In this document: one piece after another, positions 1 to 60,036 of the stretch
How positions within the stretch are numbered: position 1 is the first letter of the stretch
Layout of the letters: every line of letters begins with the position of its first letter
From: an uncultured archaeon
Lineage (GTDB): Archaea; Thermoplasmatota; Penumbrarchaeia; JASLWR01
Length of the DNA stretch: 64,000 nucleotides
Reading direction: 5' to 3'
NCBI GenBank assembly: GCA_964342815.1
Contig: CAYFHS010000005.1
Location: forward strand, 32,001 to 96,000
Notes under the pieces: model-generated
Told to the model about the DNA's origin: nothing
Seen by the model: the letters and a program-made list of their open reading frames with translations, nothing else
Databases searched by the model: none
Position numbers and translations under genes: made by a program

Positions 1-1
1 T

Positions 2-1309
2 GGGTGATAAGGCAATATGTGTCGGATAACGACTTGAATTTGAGAAATTGAAGATACGGTCCATACCGTTCATATCATCAGCTTTACAGACATTTACGGT
101 ATTATCTGTTGTCGAAAAGGCCAGCGTGCTACCATCTGAGGACCAGCCCAAATCATAGACATAGTCTTCATCTGTCAGGTTTGTAATAAGATGCCAATCA
201 TCGGTATCGTATATATTTATCACATCATCGGGATTGCCGTTCATTCCCACGGCCAACCTGTCGTTTCCGGGAGACCACTCAATCGATCTCGGAATTATCA
301 TGTCGCTTTCTAGTTGCTGTATATTTTTCCAGTTCCTCGTATCATATATCTCTACATAACCTTGCCAATAATCCGAATCATACCCTAAAGCGAATAAAGT
401 TCCGTCTTGAGACCAATCCATACAATCTATATGTTCCCCCCCACTGGTAAGAGTTTCTTTTAATACCATAGTACCCGCATCGAGGATTTCCACAATACCA
501 TCTAAATATTTGACCGCCAACATATCACTATCAGGAGAATAGTCCACTTCCATTATTTTATAGGAATCATGACTGTAATTGGATATCACGGTCCAATCAT
601 TTGGATCAATTATTTTGATAATGTCATCAACGAAAACTATAATTTTTTCTCCATCAGAAGACCATTCGAGGTATTTTATCGAATAACGATTGAAGTAATT
701 ATTGGAATAAGGATACATCTTATACTTGGTGATACTCCTCCATGAATACGTATCCCATAAAATGATCTCTCCATCTCCAGACCCTGTCGCAATTTTCGAA
801 CCATCGGGAGACCAAGAAATTCTCGATACGCCGTCCGAATGACCTACAAGTGTCTGTTGACATTCCCAACTCTCCGTGTCCCAAATTTTCACTCTCCAAT
901 CCGAGGAGACAGTGGCCAAATTCATCCCGTCCGGAGACCATTTGAATTCGCTGATAGTCTTCAAATGACCATTCAGGTTCTGAAGACACTTATTATTCTC
1001 GAGATCCCATATTTGAATCGTACTGGATATCGGACTATTGTTTGGATCCGAATCATCTCGCCATATATAATAATAGAGCGAGGCTAAATAATCTCCATCA
1101 GGAGACCAGTCGATACGATTTGGAATATCAATATCATCTGTAAATATACTTTCAAGAGAATAATATTTCTCATCGCTTCTTGAATTGACTTCGCTCGGCG
1201 AGGGCTCGATGATATTAACCGTCGCATTATCATTGTTATAAATCACTGTGGAATTGGTAATGAACAATAATACAGTAAAAAGTAACAACAAGGTCATATA
1301 TCTCTTCAT
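2..1309 (-). CDS. Secreted WD40-repeat beta-propeller protein; partial, runs off the left edge
   Basis: Not in the ORF track because it has no stop in the window. Manual translation from ATG 1309 gives MKRYMTLLLLFTVLF (signal-like), then WD40 repeats such as IQIWDLENNKCLQNLNGHLKTISEFKWSPDG and VKIWDTESWECQQTLVGHSDGVSRISWSPDG. The frame is open in the segments I translated, including the window edge. Confidence 0.85.
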   Translation of the reverse strand, partial: MKRYMTLLLLFTVLLFITNSTVIYNNDNATVNIIEPSPSEVNSRSDEKYYSLESIFTDDIDIPNRIDWSPDGDYLASLYYYIWRDDSDPNNSPISSTIQIWDLENNKCLQNLNGHLKTISEFKWSPDGMNLATVSSDWRVKIWDTESWECQQTLVGHSDGVSRISWSPDGSKIATGSGDGEIILWDTYSWRSITKYKMYPYSNNYFNRYSIKYLEWSSDGEKIIVFVDDIIKIIDPNDWTVISNYSHDSYKIMEVDYSPDSDMLAVKYLDGIVEILDAGTMVLKETLTSGGEHIDCMDWSQDGTLFALGYDSDYWQGYVEIYDTRNWKNIQQLESDMIIPRSIEWSPGNDRLAVGMNGNPDDVINIYDTDDWHLITNLTDEDYVYDLGWSSDGSTLAFSTTDNTVNVCKADDMNGMDRIFNFSNSSRYPTHIALSP

Positions 1310-1573
1310 TTGAATCACGATCAATTCATTTCTTTACTTGTATAATTAGTTTTAGGAGTTATTCCCTTGAATTATCTTCCTTTTTGTCAGACGTTGTGTT
1401 AAATGCTTTTGTCAACAATGTAACATAATTGAAGACATATAGTTTATAGACGTATTTCCATTACTTAGATTAAGATTGGAATTATACAATTATGGGCCTG
1501 GAATTATAGTCAGGGAATATGAGGTATGTTTGGCCCGTATAATAACTGTCGTCTTCGTCACCGTATGCTCCAA

Positions 1574-9464: not shown

Positions 9465-10736
9465 TCACATCTTCGGGAGATAACACTCGAGGAAACTGAA
9501 AAGGGATTGAGTGATATCGCTTTTGGACTGCTCGTCAAGTTCCTCATAATCCTTTAATATCTGGAAGATGGGGGTGCCAAGGGTCTTGATAATAACAAGT
9601 GTATCCCGCATGGGATTCACATTGCTGAGCGCATGGCTCTCGTTTCCCATTACCTTGTAATCGTTTATGGCTTCCTTCATAAGCACAAGGTTCATCTGTC
9701 GGGTTCCAAGGTGAAGATATGCTTTCTTCTTGATCCGCACGACGGGGTGAAGGAATTCCCTCTGGTCAGTGAACCTGAAGGGACTTTGTTCCATGGAAAG
9801 CATTTTTGAGAGGTTGTCAAGCGTATGAAGAAAAGCTTCTTCATGACTGGTATAATTTCCTTTAAGGAACAATTCTTTGGAGTCGGTGACCTTGATCCTC
9901 CCCTCTTCATCGGGTTGGTACGGAATTTCCTGTGGGGGTGCGCCCCATTGGCCGTGTCCGTCGTCCGGATATGCTGATCCGGGCGGGGGCCCAAACTGTT
10001 GGCGGGGATCATAACCTGGCATCGGCTGCTGCCCATAAGGGAGTGCCCCCTGCGGATAAGGATTGTATCCCGTCATCCGGGGATCGTGAGCGGCTTCAGG
10101 CCGTTGCATCCTGGGGTCATAACCTTGTCCCGGTGGCTGGGCAAATTGGTTCTGTTGTTGTCCCTGCTGAGGTGCTGGTCCTGGCTGGAACCGCGGATCG
10201 TAAGCCTGCCCCATAGGATTCGAAGGAGGAGTTCCCTGCATCTGCCTCTGTGCAGTTTGACCATATGGGTCGTGGGCGGGAGGTGTTCCGAACTGTTGGG
10301 GATTCTCTTGAAACATTTCCTGCGGCGCGCAATCTCTAGCCGGGGCTTGGTCCAAGGGGGCATATTTCTGTTCGACGACAACGGGAGGTGGAGAATATTG
10401 TACCGCTTGGGGTGGGGTTTGTGCGGGAACCGGCTGAAGAGGTTGTTTTGCTGGGTCCATTTTAAATACGTAAAATACCAGATCGTTATAAATATTTGAA
10501 GAAAAGGAGGGATCATCCACCTCCACAAGCATTTCGGCGCCGAGTTTCAGTGAGTATGCCTTCGCTGCCCTTCTTATCCTATCGGTATCCCAGTTCTTGT
10601 CGAACTCGAAGGGAGGTTCAAGTTCGAACCAACCCTGCTGGGCAAGTATCTGAAAGAAGGAATCCTTCTCATGGCGGTTGACAAGCCTGAACTCGAATTT
10701 TTTATCGTCCTTCTTCTTTTTTCCAAACAGACCCAT
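9465..10736 (-). CDS. Hypothetical protein with central Q/P/G/Y-rich low-complexity region
   Basis: 425-aa ORF in the track (TTG 10742); ATG at 10736 preferred. Globular-looking ends flank a QP-rich linker with YDPR repeats. Confidence 0.75.
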   Translation of the reverse strand: MGLFGKKKKDDKKFEFRLVNRHEKDSFFQILAQQGWFELEPPFEFDKNWDTDRIRRAAKAYSLKLGAEMLVEVDDPSFSSNIYNDLVFYVFKMDPAKQPLQPVPAQTPPQAVQYSPPPVVVEQKYAPLDQAPARDCAPQEMFQENPQQFGTPPAHDPYGQTAQRQMQGTPPSNPMGQAYDPRFQPGPAPQQGQQQNQFAQPPGQGYDPRMQRPEAAHDPRMTGYNPYPQGALPYGQQPMPGYDPRQQFGPPPGSAYPDDGHGQWGAPPQEIPYQPDEEGRIKVTDSKELFLKGNYTSHEEAFLHTLDNLSKMLSMEQSPFRFTDQREFLHPVVRIKKKAYLHLGTRQMNLVLMKEAINDYKVMGNESHALSNVNPMRDTLVIIKTLGTPIFQILKDYEELDEQSKSDITQSLFSFLECYLPKM

Positions 10737-10957: not shown

Positions 10958-13564
10958 CTAATATATCACCTTGTCGGCTTCCCTTTCGAGAAGCTTCAGT
11001 TCTTGCTCTTGGAAGGTAGCTGGACTAAGGGGAATGAGAAGGGTTCCCTTGGCCATGGAGACCATATCTCCCGATGCCTGTAAGAGTTTTAGAATGGAAC
11101 TGAAAGTATTGTGCGTGATCAAGTATTCCACTCCATCCAGTAGTATAATTTTTTTAACTCCATTTTCTTTAAGATGTTTTCTGAAAGCAAAACGCAGTTT
11201 CTCGGTATCCGTGGGTCTCAGAGCGTGTTCCTCGGGCACGTTAGTGAGCCATAGATACGGTACGTTCCTGAGATCGTATTTCTGAATGATCTTGTTGGGA
11301 TATTCTCTGGTAATGTACATTCCGCTGTAACCACGATTGATCATCTGCTTAAAGATGTTGAAGGCTCTTGCTGGTGTGGATTCTTCAAAGAGATATATAT
11401 ATCCCTTACCTGCCTCTACGGTCATGGTATCTTTTTCAACATCCACTTTTTTGGGTTTTTTCTTCATCTCCTTCTTTTTCTCAGGATAGGACTCGAAATA
11501 GTCCGAGTAATAATCGCTGTATTTGTCATAGAGCATGAAATCCGTAGTAAGGCCCGCCGGATGGTATTCCGGGGCTTCCTTGTCTTCGGGCATCCAAACT
11601 GGAATTGCGATCTCGTCCTTATCTGACCAGTAGGGGGCGGGAACTTTAAGGATATTCGAGGGTTCCTTGATACGGTAACGCCCGTTCCTTCCGATCTTGA
11701 GAACGCTCTCGTCCACCGGTGGCGGTATTTTTTCTTCTTCCCATTTTACCCGGAGATCCATTTCATCCATGAACATGTAATTCAACAAAGCAAGGTTCAC
11801 CTCATTATGTGAATAGAGGGTCAATATGAGAAGGAAAATCCCCTTCTCAGTTGGGGATGGTTTGACTATGGCCTCAAGACCGTATTCGTAAGATGTACTC
11901 TTCGAAGTGAAGCGAAGTATGATTGATTGTTTATCACGACTCATTTCCAATGCCTTGAATCCTCTATCTTTAGATATTTCCTGGATTATTGGTATGAGGT
12001 GCTGTGGAAGAAGTGATGAAAATCTCTCTGAAACCAGTTTGGATTTTTTCTGGATGAATTTGTCCCAAGTGGTATCGCGTATATTCAGGGGCGACATCTT
12101 GGGCCATACGTTGCTTAAAGTGAATTTCTTCAGGTACAATTCCTTTTTTTCACCATTGGTGAAATAACTCATTTGACACTGTCCCGAAGACCGCCCCTCC
12201 TGTGAAGTAGGTATGAATCGTATTGCATAGGTTTTGGCAGTATTTTCCTTCAATATCTGCTGCTTGATGGGGCTTTTCCTGATGTTGAATATGGGTTCGT
12301 CCAACTCGGTCTCGATAACAAGGTCCTGAATGGGTGAGTCGGTGGCGTTTTCTACCTGGACAAGGAGAATTGCAACACCCTTTCTGGACGTCAGGTTTGA
12401 TTTTACTACAATTTTTTTCTCCACCGCGAAGGGTTGAAAATCCTTGATTTTCTCCGTTTTCTTCGACTTGGGAGTCTCTTCCATCCATTCGTCCTCGACC
12501 TGTTCGCTCACTTTTGCCAGTCCTACATCCTTTTGGGACTCGAATATTTTTTCCAGTGTGTCGATGAGCGTGAAACGAACGTCGCACTCCTTTTCTTCGT
12601 CCTCGACCAATACATCTTTCTCATTCAACGTACGAAATCCCTTCTCGGCCGTATCTATGTTCTGGTGTCTTCCGGCGGTATTTTTCGTCCAGAGAAGCTT
12701 TCCGTTCCGATCGAACATGAATAGATTGAACTTATCGGTCCCCACCAGAAGATATTCGCCCCAGTCATCAGAACAGATTGTAAGTATCCTCTCATTGATA
12801 TTTACGGCCCATTCGAAAGCGGAATTTGCATTTATACTAAGCACGGTCATGTTGTGGAGCGCAACTTTCACCCCCCTTCCGTGGTAGGTGAACTGCTTTA
12901 TCCCACCCAAAAACATAAGATCATAGTAACTTTCGTCTTCAGGATCGAAGATATGCAGTACTCCCTTCTTTCCCCCACAGGAATCCACGAATCCCGTAAA
13001 TCCTTTACTTATACTAATTTTATCGATCTTACCATTTAGGTCGATCTTTCCCTTCTTTACGAGTTTCCGGCCGACGGTGTCTATAATATAGACGTACCCT
13101 CTCTTCGTAACGGAGATTATCATGTGCTTATGAAAGAAAGCAAATACGGGATTCTTCCAAGCTTCCAGGCGCTGGGATGAAAGTTTGTTACCCTTACCGT
13201 CGTATAGGAGGATCTGGGAATCGGAAGTACCGGCCACACACATATCGGAAAATCTATTTACCGATAGAGATGAAATGCTGACATCCACCGTCTTGCTCCA
13301 AAGAAGCTTTCCCTCCATATTCAGGCACCCGATGGAATCGGCCCTCCTTTTTCCAATGCTGTAAACATATATTTTATTATACGCAGGTGAGACCGCTATC
13401 AGCCGAACCTGATCCTTTGTAGTCACTTCCCAGAGCACATCCCCAACTTTGTTTAAACACATCAAGCTCGGGTCGGGATAGCCAAGAGCCACATACGCTC
13501 TATTGAGTTCGCTATCGTATTTCACATACCATATTGCCCGGGGAGAAGTATTCGTCATGACCAC
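10958..13564 (-). CDS. Beta-propeller + adaptin-appendage-like region + C-terminal DUF835
   Basis: N-terminal G..LW beta repeats (PQQ/WD-like); C-terminal YITREYP..YLWLT..LRP..ILLDGVEYLI typical of DUF835; the middle region resembles an alpha-adaptin ear by eye. Confidence 0.7.
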   Translation of the reverse strand: MVMTNTSPRAIWYVKYDSELNRAYVALGYPDPSLMCLNKVGDVLWEVTTKDQVRLIAVSPAYNKIYVYSIGKRRADSIGCLNMEGKLLWSKTVDVSISSLSVNRFSDMCVAGTSDSQILLYDGKGNKLSSQRLEAWKNPVFAFFHKHMIISVTKRGYVYIIDTVGRKLVKKGKIDLNGKIDKISISKGFTGFVDSCGGKKGVLHIFDPEDESYYDLMFLGGIKQFTYHGRGVKVALHNMTVLSINANSAFEWAVNINERILTICSDDWGEYLLVGTDKFNLFMFDRNGKLLWTKNTAGRHQNIDTAEKGFRTLNEKDVLVEDEEKECDVRFTLIDTLEKIFESQKDVGLAKVSEQVEDEWMEETPKSKKTEKIKDFQPFAVEKKIVVKSNLTSRKGVAILLVQVENATDSPIQDLVIETELDEPIFNIRKSPIKQQILKENTAKTYAIRFIPTSQEGRSSGQCQMSYFTNGEKKELYLKKFTLSNVWPKMSPLNIRDTTWDKFIQKKSKLVSERFSSLLPQHLIPIIQEISKDRGFKALEMSRDKQSIILRFTSKSTSYEYGLEAIVKPSPTEKGIFLLILTLYSHNEVNLALLNYMFMDEMDLRVKWEEEKIPPPVDESVLKIGRNGRYRIKEPSNILKVPAPYWSDKDEIAIPVWMPEDKEAPEYHPAGLTTDFMLYDKYSDYYSDYFESYPEKKKEMKKKPKKVDVEKDTMTVEAGKGYIYLFEESTPARAFNIFKQMINRGYSGMYITREYPNKIIQKYDLRNVPYLWLTNVPEEHALRPTDTEKLRFAFRKHLKENGVKKIILLDGVEYLITHNTFSSILKLLQASGDMVSMAKGTLLIPLSPATFQEQELKLLEREADKVIY

Positions 13565-13926
13565 ACCATTACAATAATAATAAAGTTGAAAATGTCCATG
13601 GAATGAAATATTTTATATTTTTTTGTTCTTTTTTATCATTTTCAGCCAGTGATTCGGCTCAATTGTAATCGTCTTAACATATTTGAGATTTTTGCCATCC
13701 TTTTTCCCAATATATATAGATATATTAAAAATTTGTGTTAATGGGATATTTGGGGGGAAGGATACTATTATCAATCTGACTGGGCAATCCATGGTATCCC
13801 TGGGTAATTTTGTATATCATTCAAGCAAGAGTAATATATAAAAGGAGGAAATGATGTTAGGGATTATTCATTACACCGGTTTGTAAACGGAGCAGTATAA
13901 TTATAATGATACGGGAGGAAATCCTT

Positions 13927-15354
13927 ATGAAATTTGAACCGAAGGGTGTCAATCCGGCCCTGGTCACTCCTTTCCACACGGACGAGAGGATAAACGAGGA
14001 AGGGTTAAGAGCGCTCATCAGAAGCGTGATTCCACATGTGGACGGGATAGTACCCTGCGGTACCACAGGTGAGTTCGCATATCTATCAATAGCTGAGAGA
14101 AAACGGTTGTTCGAGATAGCATTGGACGAGGTGGGTGGAAGGGTTCCGGTTATCGCGGGAACGGGAGCATGTTCAACCCGACAAGCCGTGGAACTTACTA
14201 CCTTCGCTCATGATATCGGTGCTTCGGCTGCTCTGGTAGTTAGTCCGTATTATCTCACTCCATCCGATAAAGGATTCTTTCAACATTATAAAACGGTTGC
14301 AGACTCATGCCCGATACCGATATTGATGTACAATATACCACAGGTCACAGGTTCATTTATACCCAGCAGGGTCATTGAAGATATTTCCCATATACCAAAT
14401 ATCGTTGGCCTCAAGGATTCCTCCGGGGACCTGACGTATACCATGGAAATATTGGATCGTGTACAGGGCCGGATAAATGTAATGATCGGGCATGACGAGG
14501 TAGTCCTTCCAGCATTGGCAGGGGGCTGCAAGGGGATGATACTGGCAAGCGCCCAGGTCTTCCCGGATGTTTGGCAGCAAGTCTACAAAGCAGTTGGGAA
14601 CTCCGATCTTGTTACTGCGAGGAAACTGCAGATGAAAGTGCAAAAACTGGCAAGGATGTACTGTAGAATGGGAGGTTCGGTTCCCGTTAAGGCATCTCTG
14701 AGAATTATGGGAATACCTGTGGGCCGCGCAAGGAGACCGTTGATGGAAGGGGGTTCGATACTTCACGAAGATTTAGCCGAGATCAGGGTTGAACTTGAGA
14801 AATTGGGCAAGGTCCCCAGGGATCAAACGGATATTGGACTGTCCTCGCCTTCGATCGGGGATAGTTTGAGAGACTTTGGCCTCAGCGACGGGGATTTGGC
14901 CAGCAGGGAATATCCTTTTTCATGCGGATCCGTAGATGAGGGAGCTGAAAGTGTGGCGGTCCACATGGTTGCAGGAAACAAGGAGGGGAAACTAGGCCGA
15001 TTGTTCGCATATCAGCTTACATATCCAAAGCACGGTTATGAGGCATTGACCACGATACTCGAACCGAATTTGGCAGTACGTCCATCCACACTGATAATAC
15101 CCGGTGTGATACAGAAGAACCTGAGACAGGCGAATATGATATTCGGCCCGGTACAGTCCGCCTGCGCCCGAGCAATCGCGGACAGTGTCGAGGATGGGAT
15201 CATCCCGGCAAACAAGACGAAAAGCGTTGTGATGATCGCAAAGGTTTATTTGTCTCCAAATGCTTCCGCGAGAGAAATCATCTATCGGAACAGCTATTCT
15301 GTTTTCAAAACGGTACTGAAAGAAATTTTTTCCGAACGGGGGGGTGTTGATTAA
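13927..15354 (+). CDS. DapA/NAL-family class I aldolase fused to a C-terminal Fae-like (formaldehyde-activating enzyme) domain, copy A
   Basis: GTTGE, YNIP and LKDSSGD (Schiff-base Lys); C-terminal KHGYEAL..PNLAVRPSTL..RQANMIFGPVQ..DSVEDGIIP matches Fae. GGAGG at 13914-13918 supports a start at 13927 (track start 13906). Confidence 0.85.
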   Translation: MKFEPKGVNPALVTPFHTDERINEEGLRALIRSVIPHVDGIVPCGTTGEFAYLSIAERKRLFEIALDEVGGRVPVIAGTGACSTRQAVELTTFAHDIGASAALVVSPYYLTPSDKGFFQHYKTVADSCPIPILMYNIPQVTGSFIPSRVIEDISHIPNIVGLKDSSGDLTYTMEILDRVQGRINVMIGHDEVVLPALAGGCKGMILASAQVFPDVWQQVYKAVGNSDLVTARKLQMKVQKLARMYCRMGGSVPVKASLRIMGIPVGRARRPLMEGGSILHEDLAEIRVELEKLGKVPRDQTDIGLSSPSIGDSLRDFGLSDGDLASREYPFSCGSVDEGAESVAVHMVAGNKEGKLGRLFAYQLTYPKHGYEALTTILEPNLAVRPSTLIIPGVIQKNLRQANMIFGPVQSACARAIADSVEDGIIPANKTKSVVMIAKVYLSPNASAREIIYRNSYSVFKTVLKEIFSERGGVD

Positions 15355-16830
15355 ATGACGAGGACCACATGGTTGAAAGGCGTTTTTCCCGCGCTGGTCA
15401 CTCCATTCGACAAGAGGGAGAGAATCGATGAAGAGGCGTTCCGCTCCCTTATCAGACATCTATGGGCGGACGTGACCGGTTTCGTTCCCTGTGGGACCAC
15501 CGGGGAGTTCATGTACCTCTCCGAGAAGGAAAAAAGGAATTTGCTGGATATTGCCGTTGACGAGGTAGGTGGAAAAAAACCGGTGATCGCCGGAACCGGC
15601 TGTCCCAGCACAAGGGAGACTCTGGAATTGACCCGCTACGCAAAAGATATCGGAGCTACAGCTGCTCTGGTGGCATCCCCGTTCTACTTCAAGCCCAGCT
15701 TCAACGAACTTTACGAACACTTTGAGAGATTGAACGAACTGGACTTTCCGCTTATCATGTACAATATTCCTCAATGCACCGGTACTCATAAAAAATGGTG
15801 GACCGCCGAGGGGATCGCTATGCTGGACAATGTAATCGGAATAAAAGATTCCAGCGGTGATTTCCCCTTCCTCATGGCCTTGTTCGAGAAGGTACGGGAC
15901 AAGATATCTATAATGTGCGGACACGACGAGATAGGGATGCCGGCCCTGGCGGCCGGAGCCGACGGACTGATACTGGCCAGCGCGAACCTGATTCCGGATA
16001 TATGGCAGAAGATACGAGGATCGGTGTTGGAGGGGGATCTTGAGGCCGCCCGTTCACTTCAGGCGGGGATACAGAAATTGGTGAGGATAGTGGTCAGATG
16101 TGGAGCCAATCAGGCAGTAAAAGAAGGACTGGGAATGATGGATCTCCCCGTTGGCAGATCGAGGCTGCCTATTATGCCAGGAGGGGTTTTCAAGCGGGAG
16201 GACAGGGAAGAGCTGCGGATACAGTTGGAGAATCTTGGTAAAATTCCACAAAGAATGGTGGATTTCGACCTCGGTGACGGTGAACCGTTGCAAAGCCGGT
16301 ATCCACGGATTCCATCCACACCTGACACAATTGGCGATTTCACCATGAAGATCGGAGAGGGATTTGCTGGACCGCCCGTGTTCGAAGTAGCGCATATCGA
16401 CCTGCTTATAGGCTCAAAAGGTGGGCCGGTGACTTATGCCATCGAGGAGGTGATCAAAAGATATGAGGTGAACGAGAATGATCCTTCGAAGTTGATTATG
16501 GATCGTCCCCGCACTCTCCTTGTTCCCACTATCACGGTGAGGACGAAAAGGCAGGCGGGATATATCTATGGTGACGCATCCGAAGGTGTAGTTCTCGCTA
16601 TCGAAAAATCCATCGAGGACGGTGTGCTGCCTGATGGAATCCTAGATAGATTGGATATAATAGTCAATGTTTTCGTCCACCCGGCAGCCAGGAACCGGCA
16701 GAGAATAAAATTCAATAATTACAAAGCCATGCTCCATGCAGTGAAGAGAGCACTGGAAGAGCGGCCGACAATGGACGATATTATGTACGAAAAAGCGGCT
16801 GCAAGGCATCCGTTCAGGTACGAACCTTGA
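15355..16830 (+). CDS. DapA/NAL-family aldolase fused to a Fae-like domain, copy B
   Basis: GTTGE, YNIP and IKDSSGD; C-terminal IGEGFAG..EVAHIDLLIG..VFVHP..NY.A..HPF matches Fae. ATG immediately follows the TAA of copy A. Confidence 0.85.
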   Translation: MTRTTWLKGVFPALVTPFDKRERIDEEAFRSLIRHLWADVTGFVPCGTTGEFMYLSEKEKRNLLDIAVDEVGGKKPVIAGTGCPSTRETLELTRYAKDIGATAALVASPFYFKPSFNELYEHFERLNELDFPLIMYNIPQCTGTHKKWWTAEGIAMLDNVIGIKDSSGDFPFLMALFEKVRDKISIMCGHDEIGMPALAAGADGLILASANLIPDIWQKIRGSVLEGDLEAARSLQAGIQKLVRIVVRCGANQAVKEGLGMMDLPVGRSRLPIMPGGVFKREDREELRIQLENLGKIPQRMVDFDLGDGEPLQSRYPRIPSTPDTIGDFTMKIGEGFAGPPVFEVAHIDLLIGSKGGPVTYAIEEVIKRYEVNENDPSKLIMDRPRTLLVPTITVRTKRQAGYIYGDASEGVVLAIEKSIEDGVLPDGILDRLDIIVNVFVHPAARNRQRIKFNNYKAMLHAVKRALEERPTMDDIMYEKAAARHPFRYEP

Positions 16831-56292: not shown

Positions 56293-59200
56293 GTGTGGAA
56301 AATGCTTTTCCATGGAACGAATCGTTCAGGAATTTCATTGGTAGTTATACTTTTACTTTCTATTATTGTAGTATGTCTTCCGCTGACGAGCGGAGGGTAT
56401 GTGTGGGAAGAAGAGGAACTGGGCGCTCTCAAATACGATCACAAATATCCCTTTGTGGTGTTGAGGGAAAATGCGATTATCTATTCCTCCAAAGAGGACG
56501 GGGGAGATCATTTCGATATATGGAGAATGGCGCTGGACGGAAGCGATCACCGCCAGCTAACCGATAATGACATTGACGAGATAAAACCCACCTCCGATGA
56601 TGACGGACGAAAAATAGTTTTCACGGGGGAAAACAATATTTACATTATGGATTTCGACGGAAGCGATCAGGAGAATATTGTCGATGACGTGCCGGAGGAA
56701 TTCACCTTGACGGATGCCAGTATATCTGCAGATCGAACTTGGGTGATCTTTTCCTCCAATATGGACAACGATACTGACAAGAACTGGGGGGACTATGGTT
56801 ATTTCACCAGCATCTCAATGGATATCTGGAAGTGCGAGATCGACGGTGACAATGCGGAACAGCTGACGGATCATAACTGGGATGAATACTCGCCGTCACT
56901 CTCCCCAGACGGGGAAAAAATTGTATTCGTCGCCGAGGAAAGTGCCGGGGACGAGGATATTCATATTATGGATAGTGAAGGCGATAATTGGGAACGCCTG
57001 GTCACGTGGCAGAACAAGGACGATTCTTATCCGTCTTTTTCATCAAGCGGCCGTTTTATTATCTACGGCGACGGCAACAACGACGACAAAAAAGCAGTAA
57101 TGTATGATCTGGACACGGGGAAGTCGAATTATATAAGTGCCGAGACCGTTGACGAGAGAGGCGAATATGTAGAGGAGAATGTCAAAGGAAGGTATATGCG
57201 TTTCTACCCTCCCACAGATAATATCAATGAAATGAAGGTAATTTATTCTGCCACTTCGGGTGCATTTTATCCGAAACTTAGCATATGGATATCGGAAAAG
57301 GTAAGGTTCTCCTATAACGTCAATATCGGGCCCATCGAGAGGGAATCGGGTAGCTACGATCACGATCCCATGGAAGGAGCCTCTGTGGCTTTTACTTTTG
57401 AACAGGTTTATTACGAGAACCTTACGGACGAAAACGGCTGGGCAAGTTTTACACTCCCCGTTGGAAAACTTCCCGGTGTCGAAATAAACGCCTCTGTGGG
57501 TGATGAGTGGATAACCTGGAATTCCAACTATAATCCCCCCGAATTTTCAAATGATCTCGTGGAAATCGGACCCGTAAAGCTCCATACCGAGGAGACGGAA
57601 TACTGGGGCCTTCCGCTTCAAGGAGTATTAGTGAGTTTCGCGTACAAGGAGATTACATACGAGGACACAACCGATGAAGAGGGTAAGGCACATTTCAGAC
57701 TCGTAATAAATGGGAAACGTGTGGATTGGCTTCCCTCCGGTACCATAATAAGTGCAACGTGGGATGGTGAAACACAGACGTGGGAGGACGGGGATGATGA
57801 AGCCGAATTTCATCGGTATATGATCGAGCTGGGCCCCATAGTGTTGAAAACGGATTCGTCCAGTTATTATGGTGACCGGGTACAGGGAGCTGCGATAAGT
57901 TTTTCGTTTGAAGGGGATGATTACGAAAATATCACCGATGAAGACGGATATGCCCATTTTGGGCCGTTTGGGATCGAAGAACTTCCGGCCGGAACCCTTA
58001 TTAACGTAAGCTACAAGGAGGAATGGATCAGCTGGGAGCAGGGCGATTATTCTATCCCGAATTTCGCGAGCTACACTGTAAGTATAGGGCCAATAAATCG
58101 CCTTACAGATGAATGGGACTACTCCGGTACCGCTGTGAAGGGTGCTGTTGTAAGTTTCGAATACAAAGGAAAGCGTTACAAGAACATCACAGATGACGAA
58201 GGTAAGGCTCATTTTACTCTGGATGTGAAAAAGCTTCCTGCAGGGATCGAAATAAAGGCCGAGAAAGGTGGAGATGAAATATCCTGGGAGCAGGATCAAT
58301 CGATACCAAAATTCCAGTACGAGCCCACGGCATCGGATTGGATCATGGACTACCTTGGTCTTTTGATCGTTGGCGGATTTTTCCTTCTTATAGTAATTAT
58401 TAGTATCATCCAGAGGTTGGTGGTGAAAAAGACCAGGAATCGCGGGAAACAGCAGTTCGGTATGCAAAAACCGCAGCCAATGTCGGAAGGCGCATTTGAT
58501 ATTGGAAAGAGCTCGGCGGCCAAGGGAAATGACCTGTTCAACCGAAAGAAGTTTCCGGAAGCTCTTGGACAGTACCAGATGGCATTGAGCAAGCTCGATC
58601 TGGCGCAGACCTGGGCGAAAAAGGAGAAGGATCAGGTATTGATCGGCACCATCGAAGATATGCTTTCCAGCGTGCGTAATAATATTGTTTCCTGTGAACT
58701 GGCCGTGGATAAGAGAACAGTGGAAGAGGGTTACCGGGATGCCGAAAGGAGATTCGACTCAGCATTGAAATCCATCAGGGACGATAAACTCTTCGAGGGA
58801 CGGAGGACCCTGATGGAATTATCCCGTAAACTGGAACACCTCATAACAATAGCAAAGAGCAGGAATTTCGTCCAGGCCATCAAGAACATCACAACCTTTC
58901 TGGTTAAGGTGCGGGAAAACATAAACATCGCAGATATGAAGATGAGCCAGGGGGTGGATGCAGTCAGTTTCGGCGGTGTCCCTGAAATCGGATCTGCAGG
59001 GGTCATGGCACTGGACGTTGCGATATCTGGAACAACCAAGCACCAGGGAGGTTACGTTGTTGAATCGCTCACCATGAAGAACAACACCATGTTCGACGTA
59101 AGCTCGGCAGAGCTTAAGATATCCTTCGATTCCAATATTCTGCGCCTGTCCCACACCTACCCGCCCCTGCCATTCTCGGAGAAGGAGGTATCCGTGGGCA

Positions 59201-60036
59201 TGCTTGCCAAGGGCGAGGAAAAAAAGATTGGCCTGTATTTCGATCCTCTGGTCTCCACCTCCACATATCTTGACCTGTCCCTCATTTACGCTGATTCCCG
59301 GGGAAGCTACAAGAGCGTATCAATGGGCCGAAAGAAGATTGATATCCAATCCCCCGATTTCGTTCGTGACGACAACATAAACATAGCGACTCTGCGGGAA
59401 ATTATGGTGTCCAATGCTAGATATCAGGACTCGAAAGTTTACGGTATCGATCCAAAGGTGCCTCTAAAGGACGTTCTGACCCTGGCCAAGGAGGGTATTT
59501 CAGAAGCCAACATTTCCAAGGTGAGGGATACTGCCAGCCATGACATGGAATCCTCGTGGTTCTATGCCACAGCCGGTAGCGGTGAAAGCATAGTGATCAG
59601 GGCCTCTGTGATCTCTAGCAGACGGGTTCTGGAGATATTTTGCGCTTGTACCAAGCGTGAGCATCTTACCACGGTTCTTGCCGACATCTCCCAGAGAGTA
59701 ATGGCTAAACTTAACGAAAGATGGCGTCAGCTGCAGCCGGTAACACAGGTGAACGTTGAGATAAAGGATTCCATCATCCAAAGATCTAACTTGGACTTTG
59801 GAGGGATGGGTGGGAAAGGAACGGGAGGAATAAAAATATCGGATTCGGTTGTCACGCGTTCTACCGTCGGGTCCGGCAGCGAGGGGAATATTAGCGTTTA
59901 TCGTAATCTTTTGATAATTGCACTGCAGGACGGGTATATCAACGAGAATGAAGAGAGAATGCTGGCGGACTCACGGAAAAAGCTTGGAATCTCGATTGAT
60001 CAGCATCAGAGCTTGCTAATGGCATTGAACAGGTGA
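56293..60036 (+). CDS. Single-pass membrane protein: TolB/PD40-like propeller + four ~85-aa beta repeats, TM, TPR-like helices, adaptin-appendage-like region, C-terminal helical module
   Basis: PSLSPDGEKIVF-type repeats; 4x IGP..GA.VSF.Y..TDE.G.A.F..LP.G; TM LGLLIVGGFFLLIVIISII. Confidence 0.8.
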   Translation: MWKMLFHGTNRSGISLVVILLLSIIVVCLPLTSGGYVWEEEELGALKYDHKYPFVVLRENAIIYSSKEDGGDHFDIWRMALDGSDHRQLTDNDIDEIKPTSDDDGRKIVFTGENNIYIMDFDGSDQENIVDDVPEEFTLTDASISADRTWVIFSSNMDNDTDKNWGDYGYFTSISMDIWKCEIDGDNAEQLTDHNWDEYSPSLSPDGEKIVFVAEESAGDEDIHIMDSEGDNWERLVTWQNKDDSYPSFSSSGRFIIYGDGNNDDKKAVMYDLDTGKSNYISAETVDERGEYVEENVKGRYMRFYPPTDNINEMKVIYSATSGAFYPKLSIWISEKVRFSYNVNIGPIERESGSYDHDPMEGASVAFTFEQVYYENLTDENGWASFTLPVGKLPGVEINASVGDEWITWNSNYNPPEFSNDLVEIGPVKLHTEETEYWGLPLQGVLVSFAYKEITYEDTTDEEGKAHFRLVINGKRVDWLPSGTIISATWDGETQTWEDGDDEAEFHRYMIELGPIVLKTDSSSYYGDRVQGAAISFSFEGDDYENITDEDGYAHFGPFGIEELPAGTLINVSYKEEWISWEQGDYSIPNFASYTVSIGPINRLTDEWDYSGTAVKGAVVSFEYKGKRYKNITDDEGKAHFTLDVKKLPAGIEIKAEKGGDEISWEQDQSIPKFQYEPTASDWIMDYLGLLIVGGFFLLIVIISIIQRLVVKKTRNRGKQQFGMQKPQPMSEGAFDIGKSSAAKGNDLFNRKKFPEALGQYQMALSKLDLAQTWAKKEKDQVLIGTIEDMLSSVRNNIVSCELAVDKRTVEEGYRDAERRFDSALKSIRDDKLFEGRRTLMELSRKLEHLITIAKSRNFVQAIKNITTFLVKVRENINIADMKMSQGVDAVSFGGVPEIGSAGVMALDVAISGTTKHQGGYVVESLTMKNNTMFDVSSAELKISFDSNILRLSHTYPPLPFSEKEVSVGMLAKGEEKKIGLYFDPLVSTSTYLDLSLIYADSRGSYKSVSMGRKKIDIQSPDFVRDDNINIATLREIMVSNARYQDSKVYGIDPKVPLKDVLTLAKEGISEANISKVRDTASHDMESSWFYATAGSGESIVIRASVISSRRVLEIFCACTKREHLTTVLADISQRVMAKLNERWRQLQPVTQVNVEIKDSIIQRSNLDFGGMGGKGTGGIKISDSVVTRSTVGSGSEGNISVYRNLLIIALQDGYINENEERMLADSRKKLGISIDQHQSLLMALNR

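Follow-up and report, generated by a model that had tools for sequence, protein, structure and literature searches.

An adaptin-like ear between a beta-propeller and DUF835 in a predicted scaffold protein of a non-Asgard archaeon

We find that one gene in the window (the whole 64,000-nt stretch of DNA analyzed here, from an archaeon of the Thermoplasmatota) encodes a protein whose middle part is confirmed, at the level of a structural model, as a two-lobed module of the adaptin/COPI-appendage fold class. In the protein, a beta-propeller comes first, then an acidic linker, then this module, or "ear", and towards the C-terminus a DUF835 domain; an alpha-solenoid/HEAT trunk is absent. The ear most likely shares remote ancestry with the ears of Methanosarcinales, Asgard archaea, and eukaryotic adaptins and COPI. 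On balance, we favor a reading in which the protein is a soluble cytoplasmic scaffold that acts as a signaling or assembly adaptor rather than as a vesicle coat, with an ear distantly homologous to known ears. Ears are protein-interaction hubs (PMC3597702), in eukaryotes those of the vesicle coats, and archaeal ears are relevant to the question of how older parts were put together into the trafficking machinery.

Gene and domain layout

The longest open reading frame begins with a GTG at 13564 and stops at 10958–10960 on the reverse strand. This confirms the gene that a sequence-only reading of the same DNA had placed at 10958–13564. The true start is probably an ATG two codons inside this frame, since the orthologues and a 100%-identical database entry of 866 aa begin there (Table 1).

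Table 1. Positions in the window of the propeller–ear–DUF835 gene, its parts, and the downstream partner gene
Feature	Position (nt)	Strand	Description
Propeller-ear-DUF835 gene	10958–13558	-	866 aa, ATG at 13558; start supported by orthologues and identical entry
7-bladed beta-propeller, aa 9–297	12674–13540	-	28 strands; PQQ/BamB-like by Pfam, generic WD40-like by structure
Linker 1, aa 298–384	12413–12673	-	One helix (328–340), then acidic low-confidence stretch
Ear subdomain 1, aa 385–485	12110–12412	-	Ig-like beta-sandwich, GAE/Alpha_adaptinC2-like fold
Ear subdomain 2, aa 493–612	11729–12088	-	Beta-alpha-beta4-alpha platform, TBP-like/helix-grip; invariant W500, Y561, L591
Linker 2, aa 613–715	11420–11728	-	Conserved Pro/aromatic/acidic PVW.PE ... 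YSDYY ... PYP, then Lys-rich stretch; low model confidence
DUF835 (inactivated KaiC-like), aa 716–868	10961–11419	-	Pfam; Walker A absent
Downstream partner gene, 423 aa from ATG	9465–10736	-	N-domain; P/Q/G/Y-rich disordered region with DP[YR]xQ motifs; conserved C-domain

Both domains that had been read as flanking the ear are borne out by Pfam. The propeller is matched at aa ~20–300 (Beta-prop_ACSF4, E = 1.6e-10; DUF5711, E = 1.5e-6). DUF835 (PF05763) is matched at aa 733–862 with E = 4.9e-31 and 107.8 bits (cut-off 33.1); the full-length model has low confidence in this domain. By rigid alignment, the modeled propeller is a generic seven-blade fold: the full-length model has VIA matches of Z ~25 to RbBP5, Apaf-1, YncE, and WDR5, and BBS chains are absent from the best 50 rows. 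Generic propellers fill these rows, making this search uninformative about the ear. One metagenome contig carries the propeller as a gene of its own, which ends 28 nt before an ear–DUF835 gene and points to a modular architecture.

Predicted fold of the ear

A model of aa 370–660 has a mean pLDDT of 85, with 183 residues above 90. Aa 385–485 are modeled as an Ig sandwich of 8–9 strands (pLDDT ~90), directly followed by a platform in which DSSP assigns a strand (508–516), a helix (520–533), four strands, and a closing helix (588–612). This high-confidence model agrees with the order of Ig sandwich and platform inferred earlier from the letters, and the stretches quoted in that reading for ~11750–12415 are found at aa 385–588 (nt 11801–12412). 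Residues N406, F426, G457, W500, Y561, and L591 of the ear are invariant in the family.

The model was compared with known structures using two aligners, which covered 350,542 chains (Foldseek) and 48,161 chains (VIA). The best 17 Foldseek matches in the PDB are all appendages, among them gamma-COP (1pzd, E = 6.6e-11), alpha-adaptin (1w80, E = 3.3e-9), beta2 (1e42, E = 4.5e-8), and also beta-COP; BBS7, BBS9, and BBS2 come next. These appendage alignments span ~230–245 columns and cover both lobes. An exhaustive VIA search gives a similar picture, with beta2 (3h1z, Z = 13.5, 198 residues aligned), alpha (1w80, Z = 13.3), gamma-COP (Z = 12.1), and BBS9 (Z = 11.3). With both aligners, the sandwich of the model aligns with that of the alpha, beta2, and gamma-COP ears. 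The platform alone is best matched in VIA by the AP-4 beta appendage (2mj7; Z = 12.5, rmsd 2.9 Å over 116 residues). Thus, neither another fold nor a set of purely generic Ig matches emerged; adaptin, COPI, and BBSome appendages rank best.

A search based on language-model features returned an archaeal cluster (0.94), followed by eukaryotic alpha, beta2, and COPI appendage clusters (0.83–0.90, with 173–207 common features). The nearest Atlas cluster of the ear is archaeal (243 aa; TM 0.57–0.66), with Methanobacteriota as its commonest phylum. Rigid superposition on ear models from Asgard archaea and Methanobacteriota places 224–230 residues at 3.5–4.2 Å. Superposition of both lobes on eukaryotic ear crystal structures gives an rmsd of 12–14 Å, which suggests that the modeled angle between the lobes differs from that in the crystals.

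Sequence-level evidence

Structure-based identity between the ear and eukaryotic appendages is 8–13%. The middle region has no Pfam match of its own: Alpha_adaptinC2, Alpha_adaptin_C, and B2-adapt-app_C are absent at E ≤ 1, and the thresholds of these families, of COP-gamma_platf, and of Coatomer_b_Cpla are not reached. When PDB sequences were searched by HMM using the protein, an ear profile, and a platform profile, only noise such as GH20, Tctex, and CcdB appeared, and no adaptin. A profile search of a 5.8-billion-protein set retrieved only eight relatives of near-full length; no named arCOG15284 member was among them. The residue alignment to alpha-adaptin given in the sequence-only reading is thus statistically unsupported and does not count as evidence, even though that reading named the fold correctly. 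Because there is no significant sequence similarity to eukaryotic ears, the case for homology is built on the fold, on the order of the domains, and on similarity of embeddings.

Relatives of the protein have sub-threshold Pfam matches to GAE_BBS1 on the sandwich (19.6 bits; cut-off 27) and then to Coatomer_b_Cpla on the platform (14.1 bits; cut-off 32.7), which is the order expected of an ear. CARDB matches the sandwich of these relatives about as well as GAE_BBS1 does, and weakly.

A conserved partner gene

The gene downstream of the fused ear gene is kept beside all four fused orthologues (4/4). Homologues of it also lie directly downstream of a stand-alone ear gene of ~281 aa in at least 23 genomes from several families of the class Penumbrarchaeia, in which at least 50 stand-alone ears occur. 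This conserved pairing makes the partner protein the most likely ligand of the ear. The gap between ear and partner genes is 43–101 nt in the seven stand-alone loci checked and 221 nt in the window, leaving co-transcription of the fused gene with its partner uncertain.

DP[YR]xQ motifs are enriched in the four partners from family f1 (P ≤ 4e-4 against shuffles) and in a fifth, N-terminally truncated copy (P = 0.004). One idea, by analogy, is that this array might be read by the ear in the way that the alpha-adaptin ear reads DPF/DPW arrays. As a general ear ligand the array was downgraded, since partners from other families of the class have a P/A-rich linker in its place, with a CPxC...CxxC zinc ribbon in the linker region of four of the five checked. 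A complex prediction for the ear (aa 381–619, 14-row alignment) and the partner (4-row alignment) gave a score of 0.00 and a mark of 0.32, and speaks neither for nor against binding. An Atlas search with the partner C-domain had no matches.

Signaling context and localization

DUF835 (arCOG03805) has been described as an inactivated KaiC output domain of archaeal signaling proteins (Galperin et al. 2018, PMC5847659). The Walker A motif [AG]xxxxGK[ST] was not found in the DUF835 of eight orthologues and relatives. The genome has eight DUF835 genes, including fusions to V4R, HAMP-PAS, PAS, HerA, and HEAT domains, which in these paralogues precede DUF835. Such fusions place DUF835 in a signaling context. 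The genome also has seven matches to the KaiC-type ATPase family; KaiC-like ATPases are encoded at C15:1906–2583, C9:100499–101146, and C2:102637–103290.

Hydropathy analysis detected no transmembrane segment, signal peptide, or N-terminal hydrophobic stretch in the protein. A surface or secreted location was considered and rejected: the highest 19-residue hydropathy (1.47) falls inside a platform strand, and DUF835 is cytoplasmic. Of the earlier proposal of a cytoplasmic scaffold, the predicted soluble, cytoplasmic state therefore stands, and the scaffold role is plausible. The proposed coat/adaptor architecture does not fit this context, given that neither Snf7 nor Vps4_C turned up in the 89%-complete genome, that an alpha-solenoid trunk is lacking, and that the C-terminus is a DUF835 signaling module. 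The protein looks like a protein-docking scaffold, not a coat.

We suggest that the ear, possibly in concert with the propeller, would serve as a protein-docking input module, and that DUF835 would act as the common output module, coupling a docking event to the KaiC-like ATPases of the genome. Such a combination of docking input and DUF835 output would make the protein a signaling or assembly adaptor instead of a vesicle coat.

Alternative explanations

The likeness to ears might be convergent, that is, a chance pairing of a CARDB-like Ig sandwich with a helix-grip/TBP-like domain that shares no descent with adaptin/COPI ears. The low identity, the unreached Pfam thresholds, the equally good CARDB match, and the 12–14 Å rmsd of both lobes on eukaryotic structures are consistent with this. 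So are the VIA matches of single lobes to unrelated proteins (Ig domains at Z up to 11.5 and Bet v 1/KA1-type domains at Z ~10–10.7), which come within 1–3 Z units of the ear matches. However, two independent aligners place two-lobed appendages first among all chains searched, the platform alone is matched best by an adaptin platform, and the sequence-embedding search independently yields appendage clusters. Furthermore, the Asgard and Methanobacteriota models have equal two-lobe geometry, and the related archaeal Ig+TBP region has HHpred matches of ~98% to AP-2 beta and beta-COP (PMC10936438). We consider convergence unlikely.

Two further explanations assign the protein another role. It might be a proto-coat or BBSome-like trafficking subunit that assembles on membranes and sorts cargo, as implied by the heading of the sequence-only reading. 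The best four Foldseek matches of the full-length model are BBS9, BBS2, and BBS7 (E = 3e-15 to 2e-14, 617–689 columns), which share its order of propeller, linker, ear sandwich, and platform; there is a weak PHTB1_N match (E = 9e-4), which at 19.4 bits is below the cut-off of 28.6; and the wider neighborhood has genes for a HEAT-DUF835 protein, a large WD40 protein, and Cdc48. Yet the propeller is generic and ranks no BBS chain among its best 50 rows, the protein has neither a membrane-binding element nor a transmembrane segment and ends in a signaling domain, and the neighboring genes are 10–17 kb away. Neither Snf7 nor Vps4_C was detected, although with a genome that is 89% complete their absence is unproven. 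We regard this role as very improbable, and are equally doubtful that the propeller-linker-sandwich-platform module shares descent with that of BBS1/2/7/9. If it did, a building block of proto-coats existed in non-Asgard archaea. The BBSome-like domain order is a lead that deserves a proper phylogenetic test. Least probable, in our view, is a transcription-linked factor whose TBP-like platform would join the partner in working with the basal transcription machinery. In genomes of family f3, a TBP gene and the stand-alone ear gene overlap at the TBP stop (ATGA), and the f3 partner zinc ribbon has a weak TFIIB-ribbon match (E = 3.5e-4). Of the loci checked, only the three from f3 show this adjacency, which is missing from those of f5, f6, and f7 and from the genome of the window; moreover, the partner of the fused protein has lost the zinc ribbon, and no DNA-binding signature was found.

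The preferred reading remains a scaffold with a homologous ear. Here, an ear occurs in a phylum only remotely related to Asgard archaea, in a genome where ESCRT genes were not found, apparently wired into DUF835/KaiC signaling and paired with a conserved partner gene. This argues that the ear was first a general docking device and was recruited to coats later. The ear and its partner also offer a simple two-gene system for testing ear-ligand recognition.

Comparison with known systems

The protein resembles BBS9, BBS2, and BBS7 of the BBSome (PDB 6vbu, 6vbv) in its succession of seven-bladed propeller, helical linker, GAE sandwich, and platform. This likeness is one of domain order only; the propeller is generic, and DUF835 replaces the C-terminal helical domain. 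With the ears of AP-2 alpha and beta2, AP-4 beta, and COPI gamma- and beta-COP (1w80, 3h1z/1e42, 2mj7, 1pzd/1r4x, 9qpq_H), it has in common two lobes of matching topology in the same order. It differs from them in its 8–13% identity, the lack of a preceding alpha-solenoid trunk, apparently the modeled inter-lobe geometry, and the absence of a coat context. Adaptin and COPI ears bind peptide motifs, through a DPF/FxDxF site on the platform and a WxxF site on the sandwich.

As in other arCOG03805 proteins, a DUF835 without Walker A lies downstream of variable inputs, comparable to REC-DUF835 and PAS-DUF835 (PMC5847659). The input here is a propeller and an adaptin-like ear, whereas theirs is REC, PAS, or a membrane anchor.

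The sequence-only reading had placed its ear-like region in an apparently non-Asgard archaeon. The archaeon is indeed non-Asgard, but the novelty of this is weakened by the ears and ear-like proteins reported in 2024 from Methanosarcinales and Halobacteria, respectively (Makarova et al., mBio, PMC10936438). Full Ig+TBP appendage regions were reported in Methanosarcinales (arCOG15284, in Meth_adaptin ESCRT loci), and Halo_adaptin of Halobacteria has an N-terminal PQQ/WD40-like propeller, with only its Ig-like domains matched. These proteins are also non-Asgard, with an Ig + TBP-like region equated with the adaptin ear. Some of them carry zinc ribbons, as do P0010 and P0024, two distant relatives of the ear family described here. 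Their genes lie in Vps4/ESCRT-III loci, whereas searches of the present genome for Snf7 and Vps4_C had no matches. Makarova et al. make no mention of a DUF835 fused at the C-terminus, and the propeller here is followed by a full sandwich and platform, in contrast to the Ig-like domains alone of Halo_adaptin. The propeller-ear-DUF835 protein is thus a new fusion variant of an already known part.

Domain architecture

The longest minus-strand open reading frame at this locus begins with GTG. However, the start used by its orthologues and by an identical 866-aa database entry is an ATG two codons further in. Pfam matches are confined to the two ends, an N-terminal beta-propeller (Beta-prop_ACSF4, E 1.6e-10; DUF5711, 1.5e-6; weakly PHTB1_N, 9e-4) and a C-terminal DUF835 domain; aa 300-730 match no Pfam family. 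For the nearest named orthologue (86% identity across the ear region), the annotation goes no further than [quoted passage not shown], so the host lies outside the Asgard archaea. The ear of this protein is unannotated in public records. The divergent DHDPS-Fae fusion genes beside it retain their synteny in every orthologous contig seen.

Coordinates of the ear protein, its domains, and related loci
Feature	Location	Strand	Description
Longest open reading frame	10958-13564	-	GTG start
Ear protein	10958-13558	-	ATG at 13558
Beta-propeller	aa 11-295	-	Seven blades from 28 strands (full-length model)
Helix after propeller	aa 328-340	-	Full-length model
Stretches quoted in the sequence-only reading	aa 385-588 (11801-12412)	-	Found in the translation
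Ear, lobe 1	aa 385-485	-	Ig-like sandwich
Ear, lobe 2	aa 493-612	-	Beta-alpha-beta4-alpha; TBP-like platform topology
DUF835	aa 733-862	-	Pfam E 4.9e-31
Partner gene	9465-10736	-	Directly downstream of ear gene
DHDPS (DapA-family)-Fae fusions	13906-16830	+	Two tandem genes
Multi-WD40 protein	1-1324		~1160 aa, running into window start
PD40-Ig protein	56293-60036	+	1247 aa; TolB-like PD40 propeller, several Ig-like domains
AAA+ ATPase and HEAT-DUF835 genes	G000:C5:24036-28720 (own genome)		3.3-8 kb ahead of window start
Stand-alone ear, own genome	C7:26996-27658		Unlinked
Second partner paralogue, own genome	C17:61270-61686		Unlinked
Split form	L035:455-3125 (metagenome locus)		Propeller gene, then ear-DUF835 gene
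TBP gene and stand-alone ear	L036:463-1005 and 1002-1877 (G071:C40)		Family f3; also L037, L038
Multiple ear paralogues	L027 (G186:C168:1-19000)		Large Thermoplasmatota genome

In the full-length model (mean pLDDT 68), the propeller and ear are confident. A disordered acidic stretch precedes the ear; after it come a linker of low confidence and DUF835, which is modelled poorly. This second linker contains a Pro/aromatic/acidic segment that is strongly conserved, even in relatives with 28-37% ear identity. We find no hydrophobic segments in the protein and no Walker A motif in the DUF835 of eight family members. In the split form, seen on one metagenome contig, a separate 323-aa propeller gene (34% identical) lies 28 nt upstream of a 556-aa linker-ear-DUF835 gene, which marks the domain boundary and indicates that the parts are functionally linked.

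The ear has the appendage fold

Searches with aa 370-660 return only nine matching representatives among 1.84 billion clustered proteins. An AlphaFold2 model of the ear region, built from a 14-sequence alignment, has a mean pLDDT of 85, with 183 residues above 90. When it was searched against 350,542 PDB chains with Foldseek, ranks 1-17 were all appendage domains, including beta-COP, followed by BBSome subunits. E values include those of gamma-COP (1pzd, 6.6e-11), alpha-adaptin (1w80, 3.3e-9), and beta2-adaptin (1e42, 4.5e-8); appendage alignments span 230-245 columns and cover both lobes. VIA-align 2, an aligner independent of Foldseek, was run against 48,161 representatives. Its list is led by beta2-adaptin (Z 13.5, 198 aligned) and alpha-adaptin (Z 13.3), followed by the platform of AP-4 beta (Z 12.5; 116 residues at an rmsd of 2.9 Å), then gamma-COP (Z 12.1) and BBS9 (Z 11.3). 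A single generic Ig domain (9fyo, Z 11.5) falls amid these rows; the remaining generic Ig domains (Z ≤10.6) and Bet v 1/KA1-type folds (Z ~10-10.7) lie below them. A protein-language-model search ranks an archaeal cluster first (0.94), with eukaryotic alpha, beta2, AP-3, and COPI appendage clusters at 0.83-0.90 (173-207 shared features).

The sequence-only reading, which saw an Ig sandwich plus platform here, was thus right about the fold. The outcomes it named as counting against it, a missing platform or matches to generic Ig domains only, did not occur: the platform is modelled, appendages rank first, and structure and embedding searches both return appendage matches.

The ear's best structural neighbor in the ESM Atlas, with 228 residues aligning at 3.5 Å, is a 788-aa cluster from Promethearchaeota (Asgard) in which PCI, E3_UFM1_ligase, and DDRGK domains accompany an ear-like region. 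The 1247-aa PD40-Ig protein in the window is not matched by the ear profile, and its Ig-like part matches only generic Ig families in Pfam.

Homology or convergence

This fold could be shared by descent or reflect convergence of two common folds. Structure-based identity to eukaryotic appendages is 8-13%, Pfam scans of the protein and its relatives yield no adaptin family at threshold, and no adaptin came up when PDB sequences were searched with HMMs; the residue-level likeness to alpha-adaptin in the sequence-only reading does not count as evidence. In relatives, sub-threshold Pfam hits fall on the expected lobes, GAE_BBS1 matching the sandwich and Coatomer_b_Cpla the platform. Superposing both lobes on eukaryotic crystal structures gives an rmsd of 12-14 Å, whereas 224-230 residues superpose on predicted Asgard and Methanobacteriota ears at 3.5-4.2 Å. 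Thus, at least in models, archaeal ears have a common inter-lobe geometry that differs from the eukaryotic one. We consider it likely that the ear is homologous with the ear superfamily; convergence is improbable.

A conserved ear-partner cassette

The partner gene adjoins the ear gene in 4/4 fused orthologues from f1, the family with the fused form. Its product, which matches no Pfam family, comprises an N-domain (~95 aa), a P/Q/G/Y-rich disordered region, and a conserved C-domain (~150 aa) with homologues in 33 of 37 genomes of the class. Comparing the coordinates of partner homologues with ear-profile hits, we find a stand-alone ear gene (~281 aa) directly upstream on the same strand in at least 23 genomes from several families (gaps of 43-101 nt in seven loci checked). 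Ear and partner therefore form a class-wide two-gene cassette, a copy of which gained a propeller and DUF835 in f1. In the own genome, the stand-alone ear gene and a second partner paralogue are not linked.

The disordered middle of f1 partners (four genomes) carries five or six DP[YR]xQ motifs (p ≤ 4e-4 against composition-matched shuffles), repeated as DPYGQ or DPYNQ in orthologous partners. This array brings to mind the DPF/DPW arrays bound by the alpha-adaptin ear. Outside f1, partners have a P/A-rich linker in this position, and four of the five checked contain a zinc ribbon there. Because this region differs across families, the conserved N- and C-domains are the likelier interfaces.

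In f3, a TBP gene overlaps the stand-alone ear start (ATGA), and the partner gene after the ear encodes a zinc ribbon that weakly matches the TFIIB ribbon; FolD is next. No TBP adjacency was seen in f5, f6, or f7 loci or in the own genome. Some large Thermoplasmatota genomes (G186, G158) have four to six ear-containing paralogues, four of them on a single 19.9-kb contig; fusions among such paralogues include an FGE-sulfatase domain (P0012, P0015) and, in P0010, zinc ribbons together with DUF835.

A signaling context

The own genome has eight DUF835 genes, with the other DUF835 domains downstream of V4R, HAMP-PAS-PAS, PAS, HerA, and HEAT; the KaiC-type ATPase family is matched seven times. Published work regards DUF835 as a KaiC-like domain that has been inactivated and serves as output in archaeal signaling proteins (PMC5847659; arCOG03805 annotation in PMC10936438). 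Together, these place the protein in signal transduction, with propeller and ear as its variable input. The coat reading is unsupported, given this context and a search of the 89%-complete genome that detected neither Snf7 nor Vps4_C by Pfam.

On balance, we favor a cytoplasmic docking scaffold that would feed a DUF835/KaiC-type signaling node, with the partner product as prime candidate ligand.

Elsewhere in this genome, a Cdc48/VAT-type AAA+ ATPase adjoins an 813-aa HEAT-repeat-DUF835 protein, whose weak Adaptin_N match (E 4.6e-4) is probably generic HEAT.

Comparison with known ears

Makarova et al. (mBio 2024, PMC10936438) described adaptin-appendage regions (Ig + TBP) in Methanosarcinales ESCRT loci, which match AP-2 beta and beta-COP with an HHpred value of 98%, as well as Ig-like adaptin-type domains that follow PQQ/WD40 propellers in Halobacteria; they traced the ear to the last archaeal common ancestor. 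AP ear domains have also been reported in Asgard archaea (Eme et al., 2023), and the platform is viewed as a TBP-domain homologue (PMC3597702). Our literature search found no paper tying BBSome architecture to archaeal proteins.

With the full-length model, the four best Foldseek matches are BBS9, BBS2, and BBS7 chains (E 3e-15 to 2e-14; 617-689 columns); no other solved chains run from propeller through linker and ear sandwich to platform. By rigid alignment, the propeller is generic (Z ~25 to RbBP5, Apaf-1, YncE, and WDR5) and BBS chains are absent from the top 50 rows, so the likeness is limited to domain order. What is new is a full ear between a propeller and DUF835, in a signaling context with ESCRT genes undetected, and in a propeller-ear order like that of the BBSome.
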